Origin: Enterobacteria phage vB_EcoM_IME341
Strand: one strand, 5' to 3'
DNA length: 64,000 nt
Sequence record: MH051917
Shown here piece by piece: positions 3,403-64,000 of this stretch. How positions within the stretch are numbered: position 1 is the stretch's first letter; each line of letters begins with the position of its first letter. Made by a program: the position numbers and the translations under genes. The notes below the pieces were generated by a model, which did not search any database, was not told the DNA's origin, and was given only the letters and a program-made list of their open reading frames with translations.

Positions 3403-3410
3403 AACTAAAC

Positions 3411-3426
3411 GGAGGCTTCGGCCTCC
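3411..3426 (+). other. UUCG-tetraloop hairpin GGAGGC-TTCG-GCCTCC immediately 5' of Shine-Dalgarno (no T-run)
   Basis: perfect 6-bp GC-rich stem, ttcg loop, followed by taagaggaaattATG. Confidence 0.6.
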
Positions 3427-3438
3427 TAAGAGGAAATT

Positions 3439-3636
3439 ATGTTAGGTTACCAAGCACGTGTAGTTGAAGAATATGACCAATTGGTTCTTAAAATTAATGC
3501 ACTAGAAACCTTTATTAAAGGCGGTGTTTTTGAAACTCTTGATATCCGTCAACAAGGGTTACTGATTGCCCAACTGGACGCGATGGGTGCATACGCTCAT
3601 TGTTTAGAGGTTCGTATTTCTTATTTCGGTGAGTAA
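3439..3636 (+). CDS. hypothetical protein
   Basis: 65-aa ORF with strong SD (gaggaaattATG). Confidence 0.4.
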   Translation: MLGYQARVVEEYDQLVLKINALETFIKGGVFETLDIRQQGLLIAQLDAMGAYAHCLEVRISYFGE

Positions 3637-4764: not shown

Positions 4765-4854
4765 GTAGCAAAACGTGGTGCCTTATTTGGATGGCCTGTA
4801 TCCCAGTGATTTGCGTATGTTTTAGTTTATTGTTGTGGAAATTGGCATAAATCA

Positions 4855-4906
4855 GTATACATCTCCATTAGACATGATATTATAGACCTATCAACTAATG
4901 GAGATG
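4855..4906 (+). promoter_or_regulatory. early promoter embedded in stem-loop (PeSL-type)
   Basis: GTATAC 4855-4860, TATTAT 4878-4883; perfect 11-bp inverted repeat catctccatta (4860-4870) / taatggagatg (4896-4906). Confidence 0.55.
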
Positions 4907-4909
4907 ATT

Positions 4910-5020
4910 ATGAAAAATTTACTTAAAGCAATTTGGAACATGTTTGTGTTGTTAATGGTATTGAGCATTTTCCCAATCGTTTTTATGATTGACCATGTAC
5001 GTGTATTCTTTAACTTCTGA
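4910..5020 (+). CDS. small hydrophobic peptide (36 aa)
   Basis: short ORF MKNLLKAIWNMFVLLMVLSIFPIVFMIDHVRVFFNF downstream of promoter; below track length cutoff. Confidence 0.25.
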   Translation: MKNLLKAIWNMFVLLMVLSIFPIVFMIDHVRVFFNF

Positions 5021-6298: not shown

Positions 6299-6368
6299 TT
6301 TCCATAATGAACATGTGATGCAGTTCTATCGTAACAATCTTAAAACCAAAGGCGTCTTCGGACGCTAA
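6291..6368 (+). CDS. stp: Stp peptide (activator of host PrrC anticodon nuclease / anti-restriction peptide)
   Basis: 25-codon ORF translating [25 protein letters not shown], matching recalled T4 Stp. Confidence 0.7.
6352..6365 (+). other. UUCG hairpin GCGTC-TTCG-GACGC overlapping stp 3' end, immediately 5' of next SD
   Basis: 5-bp stem, ttcg loop, followed by taatgaggaaaatATG. Confidence 0.5.
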
Positions 6369-6378
6369 TGAGGAAAAT

Positions 6379-6540
6379 ATGATTATCCTAGTTTTTATTG
6401 AACTTATTATGGCTATTGTCTGTTCAGTTTGCTTCTTTTTAGGCGTGTGGACCCCTGGTCCGATATTCTTAAGTTTTCTGTTTATTGGCTGGATTCTTTC
6501 TACTTCTGTCGGTTTACTTAAGATGATTAAAAATGATTAA
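6379..6540 (+). CDS. small membrane protein (53 aa; ac-like position)
   Basis: hydrophobic ORF with SD aatgaggaaaa; T4 ac maps between stp and 52. Confidence 0.35.
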   Translation: MIILVFIELIMAIVCSVCFFLGVWTPGPIFLSFLFIGWILSTSVGLLKMIKND

Positions 6541-8129: not shown

Positions 8130-8147
8130 GGGTTTAGTGAAAAAAGT

Positions 8148-8176
8148 GTTTACTTCTGCTTTAAACATGATACTAT
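8148..8176 (+). promoter_or_regulatory. T4-type early promoter
   Basis: GTTTAC 8148-8153, TACTAT 8171-8176, spacer 17; followed by conserved tatagacctatcaa. Confidence 0.6.
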
Positions 8177-8214
8177 AGACCTATCAAAACAACAGAGTGA
8201 AATGGAGATACAAA

Positions 8215-8436: not shown

Positions 8437-8447
8437 TTAAAAAATTA

Positions 8448-8482
8448 TATACAAAGGTCTATGATAATGTTATTATAGACCT
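8448..8482 (+). promoter_or_regulatory. early promoter in stem-loop (weak -35)
   Basis: TATTAT -10 at 8471-8476; inverted repeat aggtctat (8455-8462) / atagacct (8475-8482). Confidence 0.45.
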
Positions 8483-8511
8483 ATCAAATAAATGGTTATC
8501 GGAGATACAAA

Positions 8512-10974: not shown

Positions 10975-11133
10975 ATGAGTCATAACTTAGAGAATACCGT
11001 AACAGGCATGCGTACGCGTGAGCAGGAGTGCTTTGAGGAATTCCTGGGAGCTGATTTTAAGTTCCAGGAACCAATAGAAGAGATGTATCAGGAATATGTT
11101 AAAAAGAACGAAGGACATGTTTACAATCCCTAA
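10975..11133 (+). CDS. small hypothetical protein (52 aa)
   Basis: ATG 10975 after SD gaggagc; below track cutoff. Confidence 0.25.
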   Translation: MSHNLENTVTGMRTREQECFEEFLGADFKFQEPIEEMYQEYVKKNEGHVYNP

Positions 11134-11147
11134 GGATATGTTAGTAT
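11119..11147 (+). promoter_or_regulatory. T4-type early promoter upstream of asiA
   Basis: GTTTAC 11119-11124, TAGTAT 11142-11147, spacer 17. Confidence 0.55.
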
Positions 11148-11188
11148 AGCCTTATCAGATAATGACGTACTGAATTGAAGAGAATATT

Positions 11189-18686: not shown

Positions 18687-21600
18687 TTATGGTGTATCAA
18701 TCCATTCGAATTTAACAGAACGAGTTACCGGGTCAGGAACTATACGAACGTTACCAATACGTAACCAGTCACGAATGGTCAAGTTACTCATTGAAGCGTT
18801 GTCTGAAGGCAGAGCACCGATATCAGACGGTTGTGGTGGGTTACCGCCATCAAATACCTGAACAAATCCAGACCAAGCATTTTTATTTTGCTGCCAAGTA
18901 CGAGTCCAACGAGTAGTGCTTCCGTCTGCAGTATTTGGATAGGTAATCCAATCTTGGTAAAGTGAGTTCAGAGTATTACCAAACTGAGTTAACGTACCAG
19001 GCGATTTAACTTCTTCACCGCGGACCAGATACGGCAGTCCGGTTACTTCGTTGGTCTTTTCAACCATTTTAAAATAACCTGGGAACTGATTATATGTGGC
19101 TGAATCATTAACGTCAACAGACCAGAAGCCTGTATTATCTGCATCAGGTTTTCTCGAATAAAGGTCAGCAGGTTTAGTACCCTGTGAACGAATTCTAGAA
19201 TTAACAGTTAAACCACCTGAGTTTATAGTAGCACCTTTAGCAATAACAAGCCCTTCGGCAATTGTAACCTGGCCGGATGTATTATTAATAGCTAAAGGAC
19301 GCAATCCACTAAATCCGCCAGTCTGGCCTCCTGGATGGGTTAGCAAAAAATAGGTATTAGTGCCATCATTGCGAATAAGGAATCCGTAATCACCACTAAT
19401 TGCTCTAAATGCATTTGCAGACTTGCTAATGAATTCACCATTGGCTGTAACTGAACTACCAAATGTTGCAACGCCGTTAGCGTTCAAAGAACCTGAAGCG
19501 TTAACATTTATCGGCATCACAGTACCATTGATACTAAACGTTATATTCCCAGCTTTATTACGTTGAGAATAAAAGTGATTAGACGTTTCATCACCAACTT
19601 CAAATACAGTAGAACGTGTTGTATCTGAACCGCCACCATACTGGTTACCCCATACACGGATGCTCATTGACTGTGCTGGGTTAGTTCCTGTTTGAGGACC
19701 CTTTTCAAATACTATACGAGTAGCCACCCCTGTATTACGGAGGGTAAATGTACTATTAGCAGCTAAAGAACCGCCAAATTCACCGGTACCGCCTGTAGCC
19801 AACTGGCCATCCACTCTGATGTTTTTACGAAGGGTTAATGTTCCTTCAACTATTTGGTCGATATCTCTCCTGACGAACTGAGAGCTATCCAGGTTGTCCA
19901 ATTTATCGGAATCAAAAGCCTTACCTTTAATAGGAAGATAATGAGTTAACGCGGTGTTCATTTGAAGAGGAGAAATGGCAAAGCCAGCATCTTCAAAATT
20001 ATCCAGGTTAGCAACAGAACCGCTAGTATCATCACCTTCCCAAGTGGCTGTACCTGTGGTTAATTTAACATATCCTCTACGAGCAGAAGTAGCTTCCCAG
20101 GATTTTTCCTGTTGGACGATATATTTGTAATGCTTAGGACTAAACGCTTTATTACTTATCGTACCATCAATAACTTCGGCCTGAGTAGCGAGTTGGATAA
20201 TGCCTTCAGCGTTTTCGGTAGCCTTTTTAGCTTGAAGCTTAAGTGGGGTGATGATTGTTTTGTCATCGGTGCCAGTATTAACTTCAGTTTGGGTAGCCAA
20301 ACGAGCCGTACCACGTTGAGTATTACTTGCTTCTCGGATATCTAGTGTATAATGGTTCCATAAGGTTCCTGATTCAACCAAACCGCTGGCTGCTGAGACA
20401 GAAGTTCTAGCAGTATTATTAAAACGTGTTTTAATTTTCAACGGAGTTGAAATAACATTATCTAATACACCTGCATCAAATTCTACTTGAGTACCAATAC
20501 GAGCAATACCAGTTAAAGTCTCTGTAGCCTTTCTATCATTTAACGTCTTAGGCGTTACCGCACGAGTATAATCAGTTCCAGTATTAGTCTCTACTTGCGT
20601 AGCAATTTCAATTAAACCGTGATTAGTATCAGTAGCACGACGAGCACCTAATGTTTCAGGTGTGACAACCGAGTTACTAAAACCTTGGTTAGTAGCACCA
20701 GCATCAACTTCGGCTTGCGTAGCAAGATATACAGTGCCTTGGTTATTTTGGTCAGCTTTATATTGGTCCAAAGCTTTAGGAGAAATAACTAAAGTAGTTG
20801 TGTTCTTATTATAAACGTTGGTACCTACAGTTGCTCTGGAGTCCGCAGGAGTGGTTCCTGTGGTGGATACATATTTTACTATACCGGACAGGGTTTCAGT
20901 TCCCTGGCGCGTCTGTAGCTTCTTAGGAGTAATAATGGTTGTATCATCAACACCTGCATCAGTTTCCTGTTGCGTAGCAATTTCAGCTACACCACGACGA
21001 GTTTCGGTAGCAGTACGTTCGTTTAATTTCTTAGGAGAAATAATCAAATCGTCCTGGAATGCAAATCCAGTATTCTGGTTTACCTGAGCAGTTGTAGCAA
21101 TACGAGCAATACCACGACGTGATTCAGTCGCTACACGATTAGCTAAAGTCTGTGGAGTAATAGCCAGTTCTTTTTCAGGATTATTTTCATGGTCTACGTT
21201 TGCTTGGGTCTGTGACGCCAGAGCAATAACACCGAGACGAGCACGGGTTAAATCGTCCTTAGAATCCACACGTTCTACAGTAGGAACGTTCTGGGCAACA
21301 ACCCAATATTTAGCATCTGTAGCAGTGTCTTCTATATAACTCAGTTCAATAACCGGGGTATAACTCAAGTTACCATTGAAGGTCAGCACATCATTCAGAA
21401 CCCATTCAGTATCTGGTGGATATTCAGAACGTTTAGGGAACTGGAGCAATTGAACCGAAGAAGCTATTTTATCTCCTACAGCGGCCTTAATATTTACTGT
21501 CTGGGCTTTACGAAGATAGTTCAACGCTATTTTAATTGTATCGCCCTGCGCTACGTTAGTAGGTAAAGTGATATTAATAGTTTGTGGAGTCGTGTTATTA

Positions 21601-22618: not shown

Positions 22619-22626
22619 TATTTATA
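22619..22626 (-). promoter_or_regulatory. late promoter TATAAATA upstream of gene 34
   Basis: plus tatttata 22619-22626, about 33 nt upstream of gp34 ATG. Confidence 0.6.
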
Positions 22627-22633
22627 GCAAAGT

Positions 22634-22691
22634 GTTTACTTCTTCTAGGGTCATGATATAATGAACCTCTACACTAATTGGACAGAGGTTC
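22634..22691 (+). promoter_or_regulatory. early promoter plus 5' UTR hairpin upstream of rnh
   Basis: GTTTAC 22634-22639, TATAAT 22657-22662, spacer 17; stem gaacctct (22663-22670) / agaggttc (22684-22691). Confidence 0.6.
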
Positions 22692-25865: not shown

Positions 25866-25891
25866 GGGAAGACTTCGGTCTTCCCTTTTTG
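25866..25891 (+). terminator. rho-independent terminator after gene 32
   Basis: gggaagac-ttcg-gtcttccc hairpin followed by T5. Confidence 0.75.
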
Positions 25892-25901
25892 GCATTTAAT
25901 G

Positions 25902-25930
25902 GTTTACAACTCCTTTAAACATGATACTAT
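25902..25930 (+). promoter_or_regulatory. T4-type early promoter
   Basis: GTTTAC 25902-25907, TACTAT 25925-25930, spacer 17. Confidence 0.6.
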
Positions 25931-25959
25931 AGACCTATCAACTACATGAGGAAATAAAA

Positions 25960-26341: not shown

Positions 26342-26602
26342 ATGACTAAAGATGATTTCCTGGATGCAGTAGAAAAAGCCAGTGAGAAATTTGAAGTGAT
26401 GGGTGTACGAGTTCATAAAGATAGAAATTATGGGCTTGATGTCCAAACGTATTCGTTATGGCTTGTAGGTGAACATAGTCTTGTAACCACTTTAGTTATG
26501 GGTGTTGATGCACAACCTTTACTAGTTAAATTCAGAAGTATGGAAAAAGCTACCAAAGAAATGATTAAACTTGGTAAATGGCTTGATAAAATTAAAAAAT
26601 AG
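26342..26602 (+). CDS. hypothetical protein
   Basis: ATG 26342 right after previous stop. Confidence 0.4.
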   Translation: MTKDDFLDAVEKASEKFEVMGVRVHKDRNYGLDVQTYSLWLVGEHSLVTTLVMGVDAQPLLVKFRSMEKATKEMIKLGKWLDKIKK

Positions 26603-26603
26603 T

Positions 26604-26638
26604 GTTTACAAGGTCTGTAGATATGATACTATAGACCT
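26604..26638 (+). promoter_or_regulatory. early promoter in stem-loop
   Basis: GTTTAC 26604-26609, TACTAT 26627-26632; stem aggtct (26611-26616) / agacct (26633-26638). Confidence 0.6.
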
Positions 26639-26664
26639 ATCAACTAATGAGTGAGGAAAATAAA

Positions 26665-27361: not shown

Positions 27362-27403
27362 GGTCCCATACTGAGTTAACAACTAAAACAAGCGGAGAAT
27401 AAA

Positions 27404-33836: not shown

Positions 33837-34981
33837 TTGAATTATATGATAACTTGATGGCCCTGGTTAAAAACTCGACTAAATCTAAGTTCTTCTTTAA
33901 AGACTTTCAGAGTGCGCTAGGAGTCAACTATCGCATCTTTAGTTATAACTATGCATCGTACAGTGATTGGTTGGAAGACGGCGCCCTAGAGTGTCGAGGC
34001 ATTATGTTTGAAATGGACGAGAATGGTCCGGTACGTATTGCTGCTCGTCCTATGCAAAAGTTCTTTAACCTCGACGAAAACCCTATGACTATCGGTCTGG
34101 ACTTGTCGCCAGAAAATATCGACCTCGTAATGGCTAAGGAAGATGGTTCTCTGATTTCTACATTCATGGACCGACAGTATCTTTCTGTTAAATCTAAAGG
34201 CTCTATCCATTCGTCAATGGTGCACGATTCTTTACGTTTCCTTCGTCTCCCTGAGAACGAGGCTTTTGCCGCACGTCTAGAAGAAATCACCAAAGCCGGG
34301 TATACCTGCAACCTTGAATATGTCGCACCTACCAACCGTATCGTGCTGGCTTACCAAGAAACGAACCTCATCCTGTTAAACGTTCGTAATAATGAAACAG
34401 GTGAGTATATTCCATATGCTGAACTGTTTAAGGACGGCGCGCTGCGTAAGCATTTGGTTGAAAGTTATGACCTCACCGAAGGTGATTTCGTAGAAAACAT
34501 CCGTAAACAAGAGGGTATTGAAGGTTTTATCTTTGTACTGAAAGATGGTACGTTCTTTAAACTCAAAACTGCATGGTACAGTGCACTGCATCATACCAAA
34601 GATTCCATTAACAATAACGAACGTTTGTTTGAAGTTGTAGTGGCGGGTGGAACTGATGACCTTCGTGGTCTGTTCAGTACAGATTCGTTTGCTATCGAGA
34701 AAATCGATGCCTTCGAACGTATCCATTTAGATTACTTAGAACAATCATTGGCTTTGTTGGAAGCAGCTTACTCTCAACTCAAGGGCCGCGACCGTAAAGA
34801 CTACGCTGTTACTGGACAGCTAATCCTTAAGGACTTCCCAGGGTTGTTCTCTATTCTTATGCAGGCGTACGTAGGCGGTATTAATTATGATACGGTTGTA
34901 GACCAGATTAACTCTGTGTTCTTGAAAAACCATAAAGCCCAAATCCCTGAAAAATATTTGAAAGAAATTGCGGTAGAGTAG
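33833..34981 (+). CDS. rnlA: RNA ligase 1
   Basis: 382 aa; YRIFSYNYASYSDW..ECRGIMFEMD..KEDGSL (adenylation lysine motif) match recalled T4 Rnl1. Confidence 0.9.
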   Translation: MIELYDNLMALVKNSTKSKFFFKDFQSALGVNYRIFSYNYASYSDWLEDGALECRGIMFEMDENGPVRIAARPMQKFFNLDENPMTIGLDLSPENIDLVMAKEDGSLISTFMDRQYLSVKSKGSIHSSMVHDSLRFLRLPENEAFAARLEEITKAGYTCNLEYVAPTNRIVLAYQETNLILLNVRNNETGEYIPYAELFKDGALRKHLVESYDLTEGDFVENIRKQEGIEGFIFVLKDGTFFKLKTAWYSALHHTKDSINNNERLFEVVVAGGTDDLRGLFSTDSFAIEKIDAFERIHLDYLEQSLALLEAAYSQLKGRDRKDYAVTGQLILKDFPGLFSILMQAYVGGINYDTVVDQINSVFLKNHKAQIPEKYLKEIAVE

Positions 34982-35032
34982 TTTACATCTCCTCATGATG
35001 TGTTAGTATAGACTTACCAACTAATGAGGAGA
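34981..35032 (+). promoter_or_regulatory. early promoter in stem-loop (PeSL-type)
   Basis: GTTTAC 34981-34986, TAGTAT 35004-35009, spacer 17; 9-bp stem tctcctcat (34988-34996) / atgaggaga (35024-35032). Confidence 0.6.
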
Positions 35033-35039
35033 AAACAAA

Positions 35040-40999: not shown

Positions 41000-41030
41000 T
41001 AATCTATCAACAAAACAATATGGATTAAAT

Positions 41031-41354
41031 ATGGAACTTCCTATTAAAGCGGTCGGAGAATATGTTATTCTCGTTTCCGAACCAAAACAAGCTGGTGATG
41101 AAGAAACTACTGCATCTGGTATCGTTATTGGTAAACTTCACCAAGGTGAAATCCCTGAACTTTGTGAAATTTATTCTGTAGGACCTGATGTCCCTGAAGG
41201 TTTTTGTGAAGTAGGCGATTTGACTCCACTTCCTGTTGGTAAGATTGCTAACGTGCCTCATCCGTTGGTTGCATTGGGTATTAAGCAGCCTAAAGAAATT
41301 AAACAGAAATTCGTTACCTGCCACTATAAAGCAATTCCTTGCTTGTATAAATAA
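41031..41354 (+). CDS. 31: gp31 co-chaperonin (GroES analogue)
   Basis: 107 aa; [21 protein letters not shown] and C-terminal [23 protein letters not shown] match recalled T4 gp31. Confidence 0.9.
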
Positions 41355-41492
41355 AATTACGAAGAGGTTGATGTCATACAGAACTTCGGTTGGTGTATGG
41401 GGTTAGCCTCTTCCATACGGCGAGATACAACTCAGCTGGAAATACTGAGACGAACGTGCTCGCCAATCTTTATCTCGAATTGAGAAGCTAAA

Positions 41493-41741
41493 ATGAACAA
41501 ACAACTGAATCACGCTCTTGAACTGCAACGCAACGCTTGGAACAACGGTCACGAAAACTACGGCGCATCTATTGATGTTGAAGCCGAAGCACTGGAAATC
41601 CTGCGTTATTTCAAACATCTGAATCCGGCTCAGGCTGCTTTGGCTGCTGAACTGGAAGCTAAAGATGAACTGAAATTTGCTAAGCCTTTGGCTTCAGCAG
41701 CTCGTAAAGCAGTACGTCATTTTATTATTACCCTGAAGTAA
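41493..41741 (+). CDS. rIII: rIII lysis inhibition accessory protein
   Basis: 82 aa (same as T4 rIII) immediately downstream of gene 31. Confidence 0.6.
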   Translation: MNKQLNHALELQRNAWNNGHENYGASIDVEAEALEILRYFKHLNPAQAALAAELEAKDELKFAKPLASAARKAVRHFIITLK

Positions 41742-41751
41742 AATCGAGGAG

Positions 41752-41821
41752 CCGTCGAATTGTCTGATTATCGATTTACGAATCGGTATGTTTTAGAAGT
41801 ACCGCCCCGACAATTTTACGG
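41752..41821 (+). other. long-range imperfect stem-loop immediately 3' of rIII
   Basis: ccgtcgaattgtc (41752-41764) pairs with gacaattttacgg (41809-41821), about 12 of 13 positions paired including one GU; encloses an inner cgatt/aatcg hairpin. Confidence 0.35.
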
Positions 41822-41849
41822 TGTACCTCTTGAATGTATTTTGTACTAT
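41821..41849 (+). promoter_or_regulatory. T4-type early promoter driving a ~155-nt leader
   Basis: GTGTAC 41821-41826, TACTAT 41844-41849, spacer 17. Confidence 0.45.
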
Positions 41850-42004
41850 CACGCGTCAGAAAAAGGTTATCTGTCTAAGCCGTGGTTGGTATGATGACGA
41901 GGTTTATGGTTATCCTGTCGTTAAATATCCGAAACCTATGTTCCCCTTGAGGGCTTGCGCAGGCAACGCCAATAAGTCCTGCATTCTAATTTAAGAGATT
42001 TAAA

Positions 42005-42166
42005 ATGGCTAAGAAAGAAGTTAAAGTAGTTGACGGTACCTCTAAACGCGCTGGTTACAAGCGTGCGTCCAACAAGCGTATCGATCAGGTAGTTGATAAG
42101 CTTCAAGCTCGTGCTCGTGCGGTATTGCGTGCAGATGCTGCTTGCTTTGGTAAGCCTCAGGCATAA
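42005..42166 (+). CDS. small basic protein (53 aa)
   Basis: MAKKEVKVVDGTSKRAGYKRASNKRIDQVVDKLQARARAVLRADAACFGKPQA; lysine/arginine-rich; followed by strong terminator; below track cutoff. Confidence 0.35.
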   Translation: MAKKEVKVVDGTSKRAGYKRASNKRIDQVVDKLQARARAVLRADAACFGKPQA

Positions 42167-42171
42167 GTTAT

Positions 42172-42196
42172 GGGACTCTTCGGAGTCCCATTTTTG
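42172..42196 (+). terminator. rho-independent terminator
   Basis: gggactc-ttcg-gagtccc hairpin followed by T5. Confidence 0.75.
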
Positions 42197-42217
42197 TTTC
42201 TAAATCTTTAAAAAAGG

Positions 42218-42246
42218 GTGTACATCTCCGGTAGGCATGATACTAT
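42218..42246 (+). promoter_or_regulatory. T4-type early promoter (cassette copy 1)
   Basis: GTGTAC 42218-42223, TACTAT 42241-42246, spacer 17. Confidence 0.6.
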
Positions 42247-42292
42247 AGACCTGTACCAAATAATACGAAAACAAACTGGAGAATAAAATGAA
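42244..42292 (+). repeat. 49-nt direct repeat copy 1 (promoter -10 through start codon)
   Basis: tatagacctgtaccaaataatacgaaaacaaactggagaataaaatgaa identical to 42687-42735. Confidence 0.85.
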
Positions 42293-42656
42293 AATCAATC
42301 TTAACTCATATATCAAATGTAAAGACCACGACGGTTACAAAGCAATCGAAACTAAAGAAATGCAATGGCGCTTGTACAAAGAACAATTTGAATTTGTAGG
42401 TTGCATGACTCCGGAAGGTCCTTCTGATGACTTCTCTTGGAAAATTATGGTAACAAACTTTTTTACCGGTGATACCTACGAACTGAAAACTATCGTAATC
42501 GGTAAGATTCGTTGTAAGACCTATGAAGATGAAGAAACCGGTTATTCTGAAGATGTTACATGGTACCAAAACGGTCGCACCACTGCTGATGATTTGATTG
42601 AAAAAATGAAAGCCAAAGGTGAATTAAATTTAGATAATTGGATTAAAGTTGCATAA
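42288..42656 (+). CDS. hypothetical protein
   Basis: 122 aa; contains CMTP motif shared with the next ORF. Confidence 0.5.
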   Translation: MKINLNSYIKCKDHDGYKAIETKEMQWRLYKEQFEFVGCMTPEGPSDDFSWKIMVTNFFTGDTYELKTIVIGKIRCKTYEDEETGYSEDVTWYQNGRTTADDLIEKMKAKGELNLDNWIKVA

Positions 42657-42660
42657 AACA

Positions 42661-42700
42661 GTTTACTTTGGTACAGGTTGTGTTATTATAGACCTGTACC
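42661..42700 (+). promoter_or_regulatory. early promoter in perfect stem-loop (cassette copy 2)
   Basis: GTTTAC 42661-42666, TATTAT 42684-42689, spacer 17; 9-bp stem ggtacaggt (42670-42678) / acctgtacc (42692-42700). Confidence 0.65.
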
Positions 42701-42735
42701 AAATAATACGAAAACAAACTGGAGAATAAAATGAA
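42687..42735 (+). repeat. 49-nt direct repeat copy 2
   Basis: identical to 42244-42292. Confidence 0.85.
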
Positions 42736-43096
42736 CTACAACAACTTCGAACGTAAATATGTTTCTAACGGTATCCCAGGTTCTTCTGAAGTTATTTGCC
42801 TGTGGAAACACAACAACGGCACGGTGTGCGAAATCGAACAGTGCATGACTCCTAACTACGTTTATATGCGCTTTGAAAATGGTATTACGGTTTCAATCAC
42901 AATGGAAGGTTCTACTTTTAAAATCGCTTTAGATGACGATTTCCGTCAACGTGATTTAGGTACCCATCCTTGCTGGAACGGTGTTAATCGTAAGCTTCTG
43001 GTTAAAACCTGGATTCGTCACATCCTGAGCAACCGAGCTAAACCTGAACACCTAGAAGCAATCTTTGATGTAGTTCTGAACGAATTCGATATCTAA
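42731..43096 (+). CDS. hypothetical protein
   Basis: 121 aa; CMTP motif; possible distant paralog of previous ORF. Confidence 0.5.
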   Translation: MNYNNFERKYVSNGIPGSSEVICLWKHNNGTVCEIEQCMTPNYVYMRFENGITVSITMEGSTFKIALDDDFRQRDLGTHPCWNGVNRKLLVKTWIRHILSNRAKPEHLEAIFDVVLNEFDI

Positions 43097-43106
43097 TCTT
43101 AAAAAT

Positions 43107-43122
43107 GGAGGCTTCGGCCTCC
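43107..43122 (+). other. UUCG hairpin GGAGGC-TTCG-GCCTCC, identical to the one at 3411-3426
   Basis: same 16-nt sequence, again immediately 5' of SD tttgaggaaaat. Confidence 0.6.
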
Positions 43123-43137
43123 TTTGAGGAAAATATT

Positions 43138-43425
43138 ATGTTTATGACCACTTATTTTGATACTCGTAAAAATTTCTGTGAAGTTGTTTTCTCTAAAGCA
43201 GGTAAAGATGTTCCTGCCGACAAACAACCTACTCGTGAATCTATTAAGGCTTATGCCGATGTTGTATGCCCGGTAGAATTCCGTACTGTTAATGGTCGTG
43301 ATACCCTAGCAATCACTAAGCTCAACCGTGATATCAATATCGACCCAAGTGTCGCCCGTGAAGTCAATACCTCTGACATCTATGGCGGTAATGTTAAATC
43401 GCACGGCTTTCAGATGAGGTTCTAA
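43138..43425 (+). CDS. hypothetical protein
   Basis: ATG 43138 after the hairpin and SD; track start 43105 lies upstream of the hairpin. Confidence 0.4.
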   Translation: MFMTTYFDTRKNFCEVVFSKAGKDVPADKQPTRESIKAYADVVCPVEFRTVNGRDTLAITKLNRDINIDPSVAREVNTSDIYGGNVKSHGFQMRF

Positions 43426-43619
43426 TGCAATTATTCTTATCACAAACTGTTCAGCTAAAAGGAGTGGGTATTCCTGGAATGATTTCTAAGGTTTTGCCTG
43501 CTTTTAAATTCGGTGGTATTGTAATTAAAGAAGCCTATATGGTCCTATGGGTCGATGGAACTGAAGACGTTCGCATGGGCGGTGAACTGTCTGTAATCAA
43601 ATGTTTAAAGCGAGGATAA
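43425..43619 (+). CDS. hypothetical protein
   Basis: 64-aa ORF overlapping previous stop. Confidence 0.35.
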   Translation: MQLFLSQTVQLKGVGIPGMISKVLPAFKFGGIVIKEAYMVLWVDGTEDVRMGGELSVIKCLKRG

Positions 43620-43620
43620 T

Positions 43621-43836
43621 ATGTTTAAGAAATTGATTCAGAAATTATTAGGTACGGAAATGGTCGAAGTGACTTATCGTGTGACTGATGTTTCTCCTCA
43701 TACGGCAGACCATTTAGAACCTTATATCACGACAATTAAAATGCCGAAATATGACGGTGGGTTATCCATTGAAGACCGTCTGCCGGGTTACGGGCACTGG
43801 GCTGATGTCGAAATTATAAGTGTCAAAGATGTCTGA
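43621..43836 (+). CDS. hypothetical protein
   Basis: 71-aa ORF. Confidence 0.4.
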   Translation: MFKKLIQKLLGTEMVEVTYRVTDVSPHTADHLEPYITTIKMPKYDGGLSIEDRLPGYGHWADVEIISVKDV

Positions 43837-44287
43837 GTTAGAAATCAGAAGTAATTTCCCGTGGCCATCATGCGCATTAAGTAACTTTGCTAAATGGCCT
43901 TTCGTTATGGATGGTATCCAATTTGGTGGACTCGAAGGATTCCTCCAAGGATGTAAGGTGAAAAATCATGAACAGCAAAAACGTATATTCAGAATGTCAG
44001 GCCTGGACGCACAAAAAGCTGGACGAACTTATGCTAGAGCTCAGGACCGTGGGACGCTGTTCTGGCTTGGAACTCCCATTTCAAGATACTCTACAGCATG
44101 GAAAGAGTTGTACGAAAATGCTTATTTTGAAGCAGCGATCCAAAACCCAGGATTTCGCGATGCGTTACAATCCACAAAAGGTAGGGTTTTAAAGCATTCG
44201 ATGGCAAGCCACCTTACAGAATGTGATACAATACTAACTGAAAAAGAGTTTATCGACATCCTAAACAAATTGAGAGATTTATTATGA
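43829..44287 (+). CDS. NADAR-like (YbiA-family) protein, putative ADP-ribose / N-glycoside hydrolase
   Basis: SNFAKWPF..DG..F...EGFLQGCK resembles the YbiA/NADAR signature (FSNFA.WP..DG.....EH.FQA.K); assignment from recalled motif only. Confidence 0.45.
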   Translation: MSELEIRSNFPWPSCALSNFAKWPFVMDGIQFGGLEGFLQGCKVKNHEQQKRIFRMSGLDAQKAGRTYARAQDRGTLFWLGTPISRYSTAWKELYENAYFEAAIQNPGFRDALQSTKGRVLKHSMASHLTECDTILTEKEFIDILNKLRDLL

Positions 44288-46943: not shown

Positions 46944-49028
46944 ATGACCGAACAATTAAATGAAGTGTTTGAGTCCGAAGGCACACTGCCTACAGTAAAC
47001 TTGAACCCTAAACTTAAAGTACCACAGATTTGGAAGATTGGAGACGTAGAGTCTCAATTAGTGGCGCGTATTGTGTCCTACGCTTCTGAAGGCGATGCCA
47101 TTAAACAAGTTAAATTGGGTGACAAATATGCCCACGTTATCCTTATGAGCCTTTCGGCTAAAGGTTCTCCTGCTGAACTTAAAGGCGGCTTAGGCCCTAC
47201 TCCTATTGATGCCATTAATACCATTTTCGACGTAGTATTCGAACAAGTTAAAAAGCTTCGTATGGATGCCGTGATGTTCCGTTTCCCTACCAAGAAAATG
47301 AAAGGACAAGGCCCTATTGTCCAGAGAATTATCCAACGTTTAGTAACTCAAAAAACCGGCGGGCGTTTCAAAGTAGTTCCAGCTATGTACCAATTTACGG
47401 GCAAGCATACTTATATCTTAGTAGTTCGTAAACAAGCTGATATCGAAGATATCAAAGGTATGCCAGGAATTAATGCCGAATTATATACTAAGGTAGATTC
47501 TGATGTCGGTGAAGTTTATATTTCTAAAAAAGAAGGCGTGCAGGTTACTAAAGAAACTGCTATTGCCGGCAGTATTGCTAAAGTTGAAGAACGTCGCACT
47601 GATAAAATGGTTATAACTAAGACTAAGATTTCTCGTCGTGCCATTGCAGCAAGTCAATCGTTAGAATCTTATCGTAATGAAAGTGAACTGTTTAAGAAAT
47701 ATGAAGCAAATGCTGTAGATTTTAATAAACCGGCGACAGCTCCATTAATCCCTGAGGCCCAGGAAATGGTCACTAATAACAATTCTCCTGCGGCTAAAAA
47801 TAAGGTTGCTAATATAGTAGCTGAAGGTACTGCCGAAGAGTTGCATTATGATTATAAAATGTTTCCTCTTCACGGTATAGGTGAAATCCAAGAGAAAATT
47901 AAAGAGAAAATCCTGTCAGCCATCAAAAACGAACCTTTGACATCTGTTAAAGCTCTAGAAAAATACGCCTCTGTTATTAATACCGTTTTCGAAGAATACA
48001 AAGGCGAATGGTTGGCCCAGCATAACAAAACTCGTAAAGGCCAACCTGACGACCTCTGGAATGAATTGACCGAGTCCAAGTGGAAAGCAGCCAAGACCAA
48101 ATTCATTAAAAAACGCGTATATAGTTTTGCTGGTGTAGGTGGCGGTATTATGGTCGATATTACTATTGCTCGTGAGGGCTCTAAATATACCCCATCACAA
48201 AAGCGCGGCATCAGAGAATATTGCGGTTCAGGATATACAGATATCAATAATCTTCTTTTAGGACGCTATAATCCTCATAACTATGATGTAATGAACGAAA
48301 AATCTATTGAATCTGCAGTTAATAATTTGGATTCTGCTTTTGAAAATGGTGACCGTATACCGGAAGGCATTACAGTTTATCGTGCACAGAGTATGACTGC
48401 TCCTATATACGAAGCACTAGTTAAAAATAAAGTGTTCTATTTTAGAAATTTTGTATCTACTTCTTTAACTCCTATCATTTTTGGACGATTTGGTGTTACA
48501 CACGCCGGTATCGGTCTTTTAGAACCGGAAGTTCGCGATGAATTGACGGTCGATAAAAATGAAGAAGGAATAACTATTAACCCTAATGAAATAAGAGCGT
48601 ATAAAGAAAATCCTGATTACGTTAAAGTTCAAATAGGATGGGCGATTGACGGTGCTCATAAAGTTAATGTGGTATATCCAGGAAGTCTCGGAATAGCAAC
48701 TGAAGCTGAAGTCATTTTACCTCGTGGGTTAATGGTCAAAGTTAATAAAATAACAGATGCTTCTAATAATGACGGAACAACATCTAATAATACAAAACTC
48801 ATCCAAGCCGAAGTTATGACGACAGATGAGCTTCAAGAATCTGTGGTGTATGATGGTGACGTACTAATGGAAACCGGCGAGTTGGTCGTATATCAAGATG
48901 ATTTCGATACTTCCGAAAGCCCTGTATCTTTTGATTCATTTGTTAAATCTACACGGTTTGATGTACTGCCTCTTTTGGCTTCATGCATAGACCTCTATGA
49001 CATCCCAGAAAAATTCATCCAAGGGTAA
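46944..49028 (+). CDS. alt: Alt ADP-ribosyltransferase (head-packaged, modifies host RNA polymerase), copy 1
   Basis: 694 aa; N-terminal and mid regions (ISRRAIA.SQSLES) match recalled T4 Alt; R-S-E motifs YRAQ, FVSTSLT, EAEVILPRG. Confidence 0.85.
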   Translation: MTEQLNEVFESEGTLPTVNLNPKLKVPQIWKIGDVESQLVARIVSYASEGDAIKQVKLGDKYAHVILMSLSAKGSPAELKGGLGPTPIDAINTIFDVVFEQVKKLRMDAVMFRFPTKKMKGQGPIVQRIIQRLVTQKTGGRFKVVPAMYQFTGKHTYILVVRKQADIEDIKGMPGINAELYTKVDSDVGEVYISKKEGVQVTKETAIAGSIAKVEERRTDKMVITKTKISRRAIAASQSLESYRNESELFKKYEANAVDFNKPATAPLIPEAQEMVTNNNSPAAKNKVANIVAEGTAEELHYDYKMFPLHGIGEIQEKIKEKILSAIKNEPLTSVKALEKYASVINTVFEEYKGEWLAQHNKTRKGQPDDLWNELTESKWKAAKTKFIKKRVYSFAGVGGGIMVDITIAREGSKYTPSQKRGIREYCGSGYTDINNLLLGRYNPHNYDVMNEKSIESAVNNLDSAFENGDRIPEGITVYRAQSMTAPIYEALVKNKVFYFRNFVSTSLTPIIFGRFGVTHAGIGLLEPEVRDELTVDKNEEGITINPNEIRAYKENPDYVKVQIGWAIDGAHKVNVVYPGSLGIATEAEVILPRGLMVKVNKITDASNNDGTTSNNTKLIQAEVMTTDELQESVVYDGDVLMETGELVVYQDDFDTSESPVSFDSFVKSTRFDVLPLLASCIDLYDIPEKFIQG

Positions 49029-49031
49029 ATA

Positions 49032-51155
49032 ATGGAAAATTTAAACGAGGTTTTTGATAGTGATTCCGCTAAAAACTATCCAGTAACAAATCTTAAACCG
49101 GGTTCCGGTATCCCACAGATTTTCTCTATCCATGCACCAGGTAATGATAACCTGGTGGCTCGTATGGTATCTTATGCGTCTCAAGGAGACGCTATTAAAA
49201 TGGTTAAGCCAGGCGACAAATACATTCATGTTATTCTAATGAGTTTGTCAAGCAAGGGTGCTCCGGCTGAACTTAAGGGTGGCCTTGGTTCTGACCCACT
49301 TGGTACACTGAATACCATTTTCGATACTGTATACGAACAAGTAAACAAACTTAAAATGGATGCAGTTTTATTCCGTTTCCCTACCAAGAAAATGAAAGGT
49401 AAGGGTCCTACTGTTCAGCGCGTATTGGCACGTTTGGCGATGGCTCGTACCGGTGGTAAGTTTAAAGTTGTTGACAACATGTTCCAATTCAGTGGAAAAC
49501 ATACCTACGTTCTTTTAGTACGTCGTGGTTCTAATATCGAAGATATCAAAGGCATGCCTGAAATTGATGCTGACCTTTATACCAAAGTCGATTCTAAAGT
49601 CGGCGAAGTGTATGTTTCTAAGAAAACCGGCCAGGCCGTAAGTAAGGTCGAAGCCGTAGCGGCATCTATTGCACAGGTTGAAGAGAAACGTACCGATAAG
49701 GCTGTCATTACTCGTACTAAGATTTCACGACGTATGGCCGCAGCCGCGCAGTATTCTACTGCTGAGCCTGAAACTTTGCCCCCTAAAGAATTGCAGGTTT
49801 ATAACGAATTTGAAGCTTCTGTACCGGTTCACACTGCCGAAGGCCCTGAGAACGAAGGTATTGAACAGATTAGTCAGAACTTTAAAAAAGGTGCTATTAC
49901 CAAAATGCGCCAGGCTTCTCAGTTTAAATCTAAGAGCGAGGACCTTGCCAACTTTAGATACACCATTGCTCTCACACATGCTTTAATGACTGATAGTAAA
50001 TTTAAACTAAATTATGCTAATAGAGATAAACAAGGGTTTGAAATTTACTCTAAAAATATGGCATTTTTTAATACAGAAGTCGATAGACTTTTAAGCGGCC
50101 TTTCGCAAATCAATACAACTAATAGTCTGGATATTATTAAGAGAATTGTTAATAACCTGAGTGCCCGTTTTAATGGTTCCCCTTCAGAGAAAGCATCTCG
50201 AATTGCTTTCGCTATGGAAGCCGTTTATAAACTGATTAACGATTCTATTGGTGATGCATATGCTTATTCAGGCGAACTCATTAAACCTAAGGACCTAACC
50301 AAAGACGAAAGCAATGCTATTATTGAATATTGCGCAGCTGAATATGCTCCTATGAACTTATTCCTTTTAGGTAAACCTGAATCCGAAAACAATACAACGG
50401 CTATTAGATTGATTAAGGATTTAGACTCGGCATTTACTAAGGGTATTAAACTTCCTAAGGGTACTATTTTGTATCGTGGTCAGGATTTGCCATACAAAAT
50501 TCTGCGTCATAATATCGATAACAAAACATTTTACTTTAAGAACTTTGTGTCCGCCTCACTAAAGCCTAACATCTTTGGTGAATTCGGTAAAAATTATATG
50601 GCCCTCGACAACCAAGCCGTTTTTGTTGGTGGTGAAGGTTCTTTATCCTCCGCTGATGAGTTGTTTAAATTGGCTAGTGGTAGTTCATCTGATGTGGGTG
50701 AAGTCGATGACGAAGAGGTAGAATGGGAAGAAGACGAGTTTGGTAATCCAATTGCCCCTGAAGGTCCTGCGGATAGAATTGCTGAAATAGGCATGGTTAT
50801 TCGAGGTGCTGAAGCAGTTAAAGTTATCGCTCCTGGTGACCTTACAGAATACGCTGAAGAAGCAGAAATCATCCTTCCGCGAGGATTATTGATGAAGGTT
50901 GATAAAGTAGCGGCTTTTGCTATGAATGATAGGGTATCTCACAAATATCTTATGGAAGCTACTGTGATGTCTCCTTCAGAGCTCAGTGAATCTGTTTACG
51001 ATGGTGACCATCTAATGGAAACCGGTGAAGTTCGTCCGATGGATGGCTTTAAACAGTTCTTGGTTAGTGAATCTGTTTCTGAAAGCAACGAGGCTATGGA
51101 AATCTTAGCAGCATCTTTGGATATCTCTTCTCTACCAAATAAATTCAAAATGTAG
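49032..51155 (+). CDS. Alt-like ADP-ribosyltransferase paralog, copy 2
   Basis: 707 aa; N-terminal ~230 aa similar to copy 1; YRGQ, FVSASLK (SAS instead of STS), EAEIILPRG; acidic insert before the ExE. Confidence 0.8.
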   Translation: MENLNEVFDSDSAKNYPVTNLKPGSGIPQIFSIHAPGNDNLVARMVSYASQGDAIKMVKPGDKYIHVILMSLSSKGAPAELKGGLGSDPLGTLNTIFDTVYEQVNKLKMDAVLFRFPTKKMKGKGPTVQRVLARLAMARTGGKFKVVDNMFQFSGKHTYVLLVRRGSNIEDIKGMPEIDADLYTKVDSKVGEVYVSKKTGQAVSKVEAVAASIAQVEEKRTDKAVITRTKISRRMAAAAQYSTAEPETLPPKELQVYNEFEASVPVHTAEGPENEGIEQISQNFKKGAITKMRQASQFKSKSEDLANFRYTIALTHALMTDSKFKLNYANRDKQGFEIYSKNMAFFNTEVDRLLSGLSQINTTNSLDIIKRIVNNLSARFNGSPSEKASRIAFAMEAVYKLINDSIGDAYAYSGELIKPKDLTKDESNAIIEYCAAEYAPMNLFLLGKPESENNTTAIRLIKDLDSAFTKGIKLPKGTILYRGQDLPYKILRHNIDNKTFYFKNFVSASLKPNIFGEFGKNYMALDNQAVFVGGEGSLSSADELFKLASGSSSDVGEVDDEEVEWEEDEFGNPIAPEGPADRIAEIGMVIRGAEAVKVIAPGDLTEYAEEAEIILPRGLLMKVDKVAAFAMNDRVSHKYLMEATVMSPSELSESVYDGDHLMETGEVRPMDGFKQFLVSESVSESNEAMEILAASLDISSLPNKFKM

Positions 51156-51184
51156 TTTACAACACCACAAGGATGTGGTACTAT
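51155..51184 (+). promoter_or_regulatory. T4-type early promoter
   Basis: GTTTAC 51155-51160 (starts on last base of alt-2 stop), TACTAT 51179-51184. Confidence 0.5.
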
Positions 51185-51212
51185 TACCTTACACAAACAT
51201 GAGGAGAACATT

Positions 51213-51503
51213 ATGAAATCTGCATTCCGTTTTAATGGTCAAGAACTGGTAGTTGAAAACGTTATTCCTGCTTCCGAAGAGTTTGACAGTGCCATTGGTA
51301 ATGAATTGCGTCGAGTTTTCGGTGAAGATAAGCAATTTGATATCCGTCCTGTTGAGAACTTTTCTCAGCCGGAACAAACTGAAAATATCTTTAATGGTGT
51401 AGTGACTGGTCAGCTTGAATCCGAAGCTCCTATTTCAGTTACGGTATTTGTTAAAAAGCAACCATTAACGACGGCGGCAGGTTTCATTTCGTTCCGTAAG
51501 TAA
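51213..51503 (+). CDS. hypothetical protein
   Basis: 96-aa ORF, SD catgaggaga. Confidence 0.45.
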   Translation: MKSAFRFNGQELVVENVIPASEEFDSAIGNELRRVFGEDKQFDIRPVENFSQPEQTENIFNGVVTGQLESEAPISVTVFVKKQPLTTAAGFISFRK

Positions 51504-62660: not shown

Positions 62661-64000
62661 ATGGCTTATACCGTAGCTATTGCTCCTTTGGCGGCTACGG
62701 CCGTTATTGGAGCAACAACCAATTTCACTGCAACCGGCTCTGGCGCTGCAGCTGAAGGTGTTGAATCATTTGTATGGACTGTTGATGGCGTTCCACAATC
62801 TTCTGTGACTGCAGCAATGGCTTATGTCGCTGTTGGTCCGGCAGGCAGTAAGACTATTAAAGTTGTTGCAACCACCACTCCGGCAGACGGTGAACCGGAA
62901 ACTGCTGAGGCTGAGACAACTTTAACTGTCCAGAATAAACCAATGCCTGCTATTACATTGACTTTGGACCCTACTTCGGTTTCTAAAGAAGTTGGCCAAT
63001 CTCAAGTTGTTACTGCTAACGTGACGGGCGCGCCTGCCGGTGCAACAATTGCTTATGTTTGGAAACGTAACACTAGTGTAATCTCTGGACAAACTGGTAA
63101 AACTATTACCGTAACCGAAGCGGCAGCAGCAAATTACACTTTAAACTGTGAAGTCACCGTTACTGCACCTGATTATACTTCAGCTACCGCTACTAAAGGT
63201 GCTGCGGTAACTTTTGTTAAGAAAACTATATCAGGTGTTTCTGTTACTTTAACGCCCGCCTCAATTAGTACAGAGAAAGACTCACCTGCACAGTTTAAAG
63301 CGGATGTAGTCGGCGCCCCTTCCGGTGTAAATGCAACTTATTCTTGGAAGAAAAACGGTTCTATTATTCCAGGCGAAAGCAGTAATATTCTTGCTGTTGA
63401 TACGTCTACAATAGGTTCTTACTCTATTGAAGTTTCGGTAGTCCTAACAGGTACGGATTATAATGATTTAACTGTTACCAAAACAGGAAGTGTAACAATT
63501 ACTAAAAAGACTATGGCGGGTGTTTCCGTTAATTTAACGCCTGCTTCTATTACTGTCTCTGAAGGAACCCCAGCTTCTTTTAAAGCCACAGTAGCCGGTG
63601 CGCCTAGTGGTGCTACTTTTGCCTATTCTTGGAAGAAAGACGGTTCACCTGTTGTGGGTACTACAGATACATTAGTAATTGACACAAGCGCCGAAGGTTC
63701 ACAGGTTATTGAAGTTTCTGCTGTTGTTTCGGCGACCGATTATAATCCAGTGACAGTCAAAAAAACAGGTAATGTAACAATTACGGCTAAAGTAGCTCCT
63801 GAACCAGAGGGCGAACTACCTTACGTTCATCCGCTACCAGTTCGTAATTCAGCTTATATTTGGTGTGGTTGGTGGGTTATGGATGAAATCCAGAAAATGA
63901 CTCTTGAAGGCAAAGACTGGAAAACTGACGAACCTGATAGTGAATATTATCTCCATCGTTATACCCTTCAAAAAATGGTAGCCGATTATCCTGAGGTTGA
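62661..64000 (+). CDS. hoc: Hoc outer capsid decoration protein with tandem Ig-like domains (3' end outside window)
   Basis: repeated ~90-aa Ig-like modules (GAPSG.TF.YSWKK.GS...G); capsid-binding region KVAPEPEGELPYVHPLP..SAYIWCGWWVMDEIQKMT.EGKDWKTD matches recalled T4 Hoc; no stop codon before window end. Confidence 0.9.
   Translation, partial: MAYTVAIAPLAATAVIGATTNFTATGSGAAAEGVESFVWTVDGVPQSSVTAAMAYVAVGPAGSKTIKVVATTTPADGEPETAEAETTLTVQNKPMPAITLTLDPTSVSKEVGQSQVVTANVTGAPAGATIAYVWKRNTSVISGQTGKTITVTEAAAANYTLNCEVTVTAPDYTSATATKGAAVTFVKKTISGVSVTLTPASISTEKDSPAQFKADVVGAPSGVNATYSWKKNGSIIPGESSNILAVDTSTIGSYSIEVSVVLTGTDYNDLTVTKTGSVTITKKTMAGVSVNLTPASITVSEGTPASFKATVAGAPSGATFAYSWKKDGSPVVGTTDTLVIDTSAEGSQVIEVSAVVSATDYNPVTVKKTGNVTITAKVAPEPEGELPYVHPLPVRNSAYIWCGWWVMDEIQKMTLEGKDWKTDEPDSEYYLHRYTLQKMVADYPEV

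Follow-up and report, generated by a model that had tools for sequence, protein, structure and literature searches.

The stretch of DNA analyzed here, referred to below as the window, comprises 64,000 nucleotides of Enterobacteria phage vB_EcoM_IME341 (MH051917), a T4-like myovirus of the genus Dhakavirus. The window matches Salmonella phage ABTNLsp5 best (97%); next come PSD9, dhaeg, IME08, MX01, and JS98. The genes are ordered gp31, rIII, 30.9, 30.8, 30.7, 30.6, onward to DNA ligase (gene 30). Within the rIII–gene 30 interval, home of the small early ORFs 30.9 to 30.3, a 49-nt sequence, TATAGACCTGTACCAAATAATACGAAAACAAACTGGAGAATAAAATGAA, occurs in two exact plus-strand copies at 42244–42292 and 42687–42735. 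These direct repeats lie 443 bp apart, and each overlaps by 5 nt the start of an ORF (42288–42656 and 42731–43096); the same two ORFs are annotated 30.8 and 30.7 in JS98, IME08, and VR7. Gene 30.8, the ORF enclosed by both repeat copies, is swapped or lost in relatives. Both gp30.8 and gp30.7 belong to families of unknown function without solved relatives. Antisense ORFs over the repeats (42200–42316 and 42686–42811, minus strand) were dismissed because their frames differ across the repeat. The features of the locus are as follows.

42170–42200, plus strand: intrinsic terminator after 30.9, from a terminator scan; 9-bp stem ATGGGACTC/GAGTCCCAT, UUCG loop, T-run
42219–42246, plus strand: predicted early promoter of 30.8; −35 TGTACA at 42219–42224, 16-nt spacer, −10 TACTAT at 42241–42246
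42244–42292, plus strand: repeat copy 1; 3′ half of the −10, predicted start at ~42253, leader, Shine–Dalgarno (SD) GGAG at 42278–42281, ATG and 2 further nt of 30.8
42288–42656, plus strand: gene 30.8 homologue, 122 aa; PF06019 (Phage_30_8), E = 1e-44; PHROG 1507
42662–42689, plus strand: predicted early promoter of 30.7, from a promoter scan; −35 TTTACT at 42662–42667, 16-nt spacer, TG-extended −10 TATTAT at 42684–42689
42667–42678 / 42692–42703, plus strand: perfect 12-bp inverted repeat, TTTGGTACAGGT/ACCTGTACCAAA; the 13-nt loop holds the −10
42687–42735, plus strand: repeat copy 2; 3′ half of the −10, predicted start at ~42696, leader, SD GGAG at 42721–42724, ATG and 2 further nt of 30.7
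42731–43096, plus strand: gene 30.7 homologue, 121 aa; PF06919 (Phage_T4_Gp30_7), E = 7e-51; PHROG 1582

Anatomy of the repeat and its cassettes

The exact 49-nt duplication reported in a preliminary description of this DNA holds at both coordinates. It is the longest exact repeat of the window (the runner-up measures 29 nt), and the 49-mer had no match in any of 100 dinucleotide-preserving shuffles. Nor is it common genome-wide, as a simple shared promoter would be: a search of the whole 64-kb window at up to three mismatches returned no third copy. The ORFs behind the two copies, put at ~121 aa each, measure 122 and 121 aa, and leader, SD, and ATG are duplicated as described. Given the −35 elements and their 16-nt spacers, however, the repeat contains only the 3′ half of the −10 rather than the whole element, and of the first two codons thought to be included it holds ATG and 2 nt of the second (AAA Lys versus AAC Asn). 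The 49-mer thus begins halfway through the −10 hexamer and consists mainly of the transcribed leader and translation-initiation region.

The first ~11 nt of the 49-mer (AyTATAGACCT) are shared by 7 of the window's early promoters and are the only part of the repeat that belongs to a genome-wide promoter consensus. The SD–ATG 18-mer has one more near-copy, at 27391, and the central 24 nt are unique within the window to the 30.8/30.7 pair. In −35, −10, and spacing, the two promoters resemble T4 early promoters (extended consensus around GTTTAC...TAyTAT), and AyTATAGACCT is present in at least seven promoters of the window. Unlike that consensus, the 24-nt leader core is common to the 30.8/30.7 pair only; since it is restricted to one pair, a common promoter consensus is insufficient as an explanation of the repeat. 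In full-length IMG/VR Dhakavirus contigs, the leader 40-mer is confined to one stretch of each contig, where it is present once or twice. An assembly artefact was ruled out, as the two-cassette layout is found in dozens of independent genome records.

The predicted 30.8 promoter is a member of the window's eight-copy early-promoter repeat family (D1) and has one mismatch to the T4/PST consensus TTTACW-N17-TAYWAT (PMC4122927). It was not called by a generic promoter scan and matches the E. coli consensus at 8 of 12 positions. The stem-loop part of cassette 1 is the 30.9 terminator, whose hairpin (42170–42191) folds as RNA at −15.2 kcal/mol (z = −4.0) and which lies 5′ of the −35 with an AT-rich stretch between. 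In cassette 2, the stem-loop part is the 12-bp inverted repeat around the −10. For copy 2, read-through RNA is predicted to fold into a hairpin (z = −3.6, −21 kcal/mol); the corresponding stretch of copy 1, which lacks an intact 5′ palindrome arm, folds no better than shuffles (z = −0.15). Without a U-tract, the copy 2 hairpin is not a canonical intrinsic terminator. Its palindrome core, GGTACAGG/CCTGTACC, is invariant 5′ of 30.7 in four genera, and because the arms do not vary between genera, the hairpin gains no covariation support. The 30.7 promoter is conserved 5′ of 30.7 in T4, Mosigvirus, Gaprivervirus, and Dhakavirus. From the predicted starts, the 35-nt A-rich leaders are unstructured (copy 1 at −0.9 kcal/mol, no better than shuffles), and GGAG stands 6 nt 5′ of the ATG in both copies. 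An Rfam E-value scan of 41000–44000 returned no RNA family match, over the leaders or elsewhere in that segment.

The window contains at least eight promoters of this design. Further early-promoter cassettes (GTTTAC, ~17 nt, TAyTAT, AGACCT) are found at 4842–4912, 8135–8190, 8441–8491, 11106–11165, 22621–22676, 25889–25959, 26591–26661, 34968–35038, and 51162–51213. Several of them have a second leader type in common, ACCTATCAACTAATGAGGAG, and in some the −10 is enclosed by an inverted repeat, as at 8455–8482 (AGGTCTAT...ATAGACCT). The cassettes at 25889 and 26591 are 702 nt apart, share a 24-nt exact core, and could form another exchangeable ORF unit. A second kind of intergenic cassette, without a promoter, is the stem-loop and SD module GGAGGCTTCGGCCTCC ... 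TGAGGAAAATATTATG at 43103–43136, 3407–3440, and 6347–6380; its copy at the 30.7/30.6 junction is 88% identical to the 3407 site.

Repeats of other kinds lie elsewhere in the window. Direct repeats at 47061–47639 and 49155–49733 (70–81% identity, 2094 nt apart), 3′ of the DNA ligase gene, resemble a tandem pair of paralogous genes of ~2 kb each, which, guessing by position, we take to be possibly alt-like ADP-ribosyltransferases. Coding-region repeats at 63034–63784 (~285-nt period, 70–72% identity) suggest tandem ~95-aa domains, which we presume may be Ig-like as in Hoc. Six copies of a 30-nt motif at 20162–20980 (plus-strand coordinates), spaced by multiples of about 108 nt, suggest a repeat-containing coding region.

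Genes 30.8 and 30.7 and their leaders across genera

The two proteins fall into different Pfam and PHROG families. BLASTP of gp30.8 against gp30.7 returned a 28-aa local match around the motif CMTP (E = 0.042), and profile–profile comparison with hhalign (29 sequences for gp30.8, 18 for gp30.7) gave a probability of 0.4%. The AlphaFold models differ in layout: gp30.8 (pLDDT 93) is built of eight strands, one helix, and two short strands, and gp30.7 (pLDDT 87) of seven strands and three helices. When each model was searched against BFVD with Foldseek, significant matches were limited to its own family, and the two sets of matches were disjoint. Only the 122-aa subtype of gp30.8 keeps CMTP, read in the preliminary description as a signature shared by the two ORFs, without variation; the T4/JS98 subtype lacks it, and across the gp30.7 family the motif is unconserved. 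Judged from these profiles and models, 30.8 and 30.7 are unrelated genes and not the divergent paralogs for which they had been taken. Unrelated folds combined with a 49-mer common throughout the genome had been named as the sign of a simple shared promoter; the folds are indeed unrelated in the models, and the second half of that combination fails on the uniqueness of the repeat.

In T4, Mosigvirus, and Gaprivervirus, 30.8 and 30.7 already exist as separate orthologues with less similar upstream regions, so the upstream identity must be younger than the genes. Leader 1 and leader 2 of the same genome are 98–100% identical in Dhakavirus, 82–84% in Mosigvirus, 73% in Gaprivervirus, and 58% in T4. 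Copy 1 of Dhakavirus is nearer to Dhakavirus copy 2 (98–100%) than to its positional orthologue in Mosigvirus (84%), and the copies within a genome are thus more alike than positional orthologues, as in concerted evolution. Because the within-genome identity is younger than the genes and is confined to one lineage, it points to copying between cassettes rather than to duplication and divergence. This indicates that the leaders were homogenized by recombination, specifically in the Dhakavirus lineage. Of the origins first put forward for the repeat, recent cassette transfer or gene conversion agrees both with leaders that are near-identical only in Dhakavirus and with breakpoints in relatives that fall inside the cassettes. 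Tandem duplication with fast protein divergence does not, as T4 has separate orthologues whose upstream regions are only 58% alike.

The donor copy is weakly indicated by leader identities: the Dhakavirus leader is closest to the 30.7 leader of VR7 and Gaprivervirus (90% identical), against 84% for the Mosigvirus 30.8 leader. The −35 and spacer of cassette 1 in Dhakavirus still resemble the Mosigvirus 30.8 promoter, and the sequence 5′ of 30.8 varies by genus. The perfect identity of the two copies is particular to IME341. Position 42251 is C in copy 1 of the window and A in copy 1 of all other Dhakavirus examined, so that the usual state of the genus is 48 of 49 identical bases with a 41-nt exact run; the C could be a point mutation instead of a fresh conversion.

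Leaders might also be kept identical without any copying, by purifying selection on a common cis-regulatory function such as binding of one trans-acting translational repressor, action of an RNase such as RegB at GGAG, or pairing with an sRNA. In keeping with such a function, the SD–start segment ACTGGAGAATAAAATGAA or a close variant lies 5′ of both genes in all genera examined, the near-copy at 27391 is a third instance of the SD–ATG segment, and the lack of structure in the leaders suits efficient initiation. However, the central ~24 nt vary freely between genera, which means that the exact leader sequence is not required, and outside Dhakavirus the leaders are only 58–84% alike. Independent convergence on 48–49 of 49 bases is implausible, and viable phages carry chimeric cassettes with different leaders. 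We therefore regard selection alone as an unlikely source of the identity and favor copying between the cassettes.

Breakpoints in related phages

The window is 97–100% identical to JS98 and MX01 outside about 42290–42665 and 35–65% identical inside. Read from the alignment, this difference is a swap of the 30.8 allele, with its edges at the end of copy 1 and at the −35 of cassette 2. The window allele encodes 122 aa and is 94% identical to that of VR7; the JS98/MX01 allele encodes 110 aa, is 78% identical to that of T4, and has 38% amino acid identity to the window allele. Both alleles are present among Dhakavirus genomes, as judged by locus length per record, and PSD9, though classified in the species wg01, carries a 30.8 allele other than that of WG01. 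In PSD9, similarity ends within leader 2, immediately 5′ of the SD, and 30.7 reaches only 87% identity. In phage C6, an extra ORF and terminator are inserted at 42196, right after the 30.9 terminator, and the right junction falls in the −35/spacer of promoter 1. The C6 ORF (832–1188 of the C6 sequence, between 30.9 and 30.8) encodes a proline-rich protein of 118 aa and unknown function (PHROG 17531); tblastn found no match to it in the window.

A single-piece arrangement that lacks 30.8 was found in at least eight records, four of which were read: the Mosigviruses JM10, AV109, and SQ17 and a fragment of TuIa. Here 30.9 and its terminator are followed by one chimeric cassette and then by 30.7. 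AV109 and TuIa keep the entire 30.8 leader, with the crossover at GGAGAATAAAATGAA; SQ17 crosses over at TATAGACTTGTACC, and JM10 at GTGTTA, just 5′ of the −10. The first 50 kb of JM10 contain no gp30.8 homologue. Although it is a Mosigvirus, JM10 carries the exact Dhakavirus 49-mer, a hint of cross-genus transfer, and its 30.7 is Dhakavirus-like over the first ~120 nt (120/122) before it returns to Mosigvirus sequence.

A BLAST search with chimeric junctions, in which the Mosigvirus deletions surfaced, returned no 30.8-less Dhakavirus among the 43 records with both flanks. Because all 43 keep 30.8, deletion between the perfect repeats appears to be rare or selected against in this genus, and 30.8 would be retained in Dhakavirus by selection.

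Klebsiella phage PWKp18 (Marfavirus) encodes at 1301–2239 a gp30.8 homologue (73% amino acid identity) preceded by ACTGGAGAATAAAATGAA; a different ORF of 176 aa replaces 30.7, and the sequence between holds a terminator and no promoter cassette. In the TuIa record (AJ621579, 78–106), the minus_10_signal (78–86) and minus_35_signal (101–106) are arranged, with respect to the gene, the opposite way round from what is expected, and the labels may have been swapped or shifted.

Recombination at PeSL-type cassettes

Promoter-early stem-loops (PeSLs) have been described in RB49/phi1, PST/T4, and nt-1/KVP40. They join an AT-rich region and an early promoter to a stem-loop of variable position (upstream of the −35, between the boxes, or overlapping the −10) and to an SD with start codon, and they are concentrated in hyperplastic regions (PMC2839356, PMC4122927). 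Where one phage has an ORF between two PeSLs, a relative can have a single chimeric PeSL in its place, with varying crossovers, and PeSL mini-circles have been detected experimentally (PMC2839356, PMC4122927).

Both cassettes of IME341 have, by consensus match, a sigma-70-like promoter with ~17-nt spacing, a stable stem-loop (upstream of the −35 in copy 1, enclosing the −10 in copy 2), and an SD and start codon at the 3′ end. They lie in a hyperplastic region (rIII–30), upstream of small ORFs of unknown function, and the indels and replacements at the locus have their junctions in the cassettes (the allele swap, C6, PSD9, and the three 30.8-loss crossovers). With all sequence-level defining features present, the two elements are, on that footing, PeSL-type cassettes. 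Their composite layout, hyperplastic location, chimeric single cassettes, and spread crossovers are those of published PeSLs (Arbiol et al. 2010; Comeau et al. 2014). Unlike in those elements, the longest identity is here in the transcribed leader (perfect over 49 nt) and not in the promoter or AT-rich part, and the stem of copy 2 is GGTACAGG/CCTGTACC instead of a poly-G/poly-C stem. The main texts of PMC2839356 and PMC4122927 mention neither the 30.8/30.7 locus nor Dhakavirus.

We consider it very probable that PeSL-type cassettes drive the unrelated genes 30.8 and 30.7, that leader identity arose by copying between these cassettes, and that recombination at them swaps, inserts, and deletes ORFs. 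Each cassette would give its small ORF its own early transcription, firing as an immediate-early promoter; the identical leaders would give 30.8 and 30.7 the same translation initiation, and the hairpin and terminator would damp read-through. The 49-bp direct repeats would serve as substrates of phage homologous recombination, for which T4 needs less than 50 bp of homology (Singer et al. 1982, as cited in PMC2839356). Leader identity may have come about by gene conversion or by Campbell-type excision and reinsertion of a 443-bp mini-circle carrying 30.8. Recombination between cassettes would swap 30.8 alleles, insert ORFs, and delete 30.8, leaving one chimeric cassette before 30.7.

The cassettes could instead be sites of a dedicated site-specific recombination that recognizes the palindrome GGTACAGG...CCTGTACC. 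Its arms do not differ among four genera, although the 5′ one falls within the promoter spacer, which is normally unconstrained, and the PeSL authors raised a site-specific option for their stem-loops (PMC2839356). The junctions of the deletions, swap, and insertion and of PSD9, however, lie at differing positions over about 70 nt of cassette, a spread of crossover points that favors general homologous recombination over a site-specific system. Copy 1 has no intact 5′ arm, no candidate recombinase was identified, and we give a dedicated system little credence. It is likewise highly improbable that the palindrome and common leader are the recognition site of a phage DNA-binding or recombination factor, with 30.8 an actively mobilized, integron-like cassette that moves as a mini-circle and crosses genera. 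By analogy only, the locus is like integron cassettes (attC/attI) in that single ORFs lie between repeated hairpin-forming sites and are excisable as circles and reinsertable; unlike integrons, it lacks an integrase, its crossover point is not fixed, and every cassette has a promoter of its own. Least credible of all is tandem duplication of a promoter-and-gene unit with fast protein divergence and a retained regulatory part: the ORFs are adjacent, on the same strand, near-equal in length (122 and 121 aa), and identical upstream, share the weak BLASTP match around CMTP (E = 0.042), and are both modeled as β-rich N-terminally and helical C-terminally, but they belong to separate Pfam and PHROG families with an hhalign probability of 0.4% and disjoint Foldseek matches, CMTP is unconserved in either family as a whole, and T4, Mosigvirus, and Gaprivervirus have distinct orthologues with upstream regions far less alike.

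Exchange of ORFs by homologous recombination between PeSL-type cassettes, the reading that we prefer, has a parallel in the T4 internal-protein (IP) locus, where, as cited in PMC4122927 (Repoila et al. 1994), small nonessential early genes are exchanged at conserved flanking regulatory sequences; unlike there, another locus and other genes are involved here. The present locus adds Dhakavirus and Mosigvirus to the range of the PeSL model and shows cassette exchange between genera. Its 49-bp perfect repeats, 443 bp apart, offer an easy experimental handle for cassette excision, and for annotation they warn against taking genes for paralogs because their upstream regions are identical. This one locus is found filled with either of two alleles, expanded, or emptied by three independent routes, and the junctions of every state lie inside a regulatory cassette of ~90 nt, which makes the locus a clean natural example of small accessory gene shuffling in T4-like phages.
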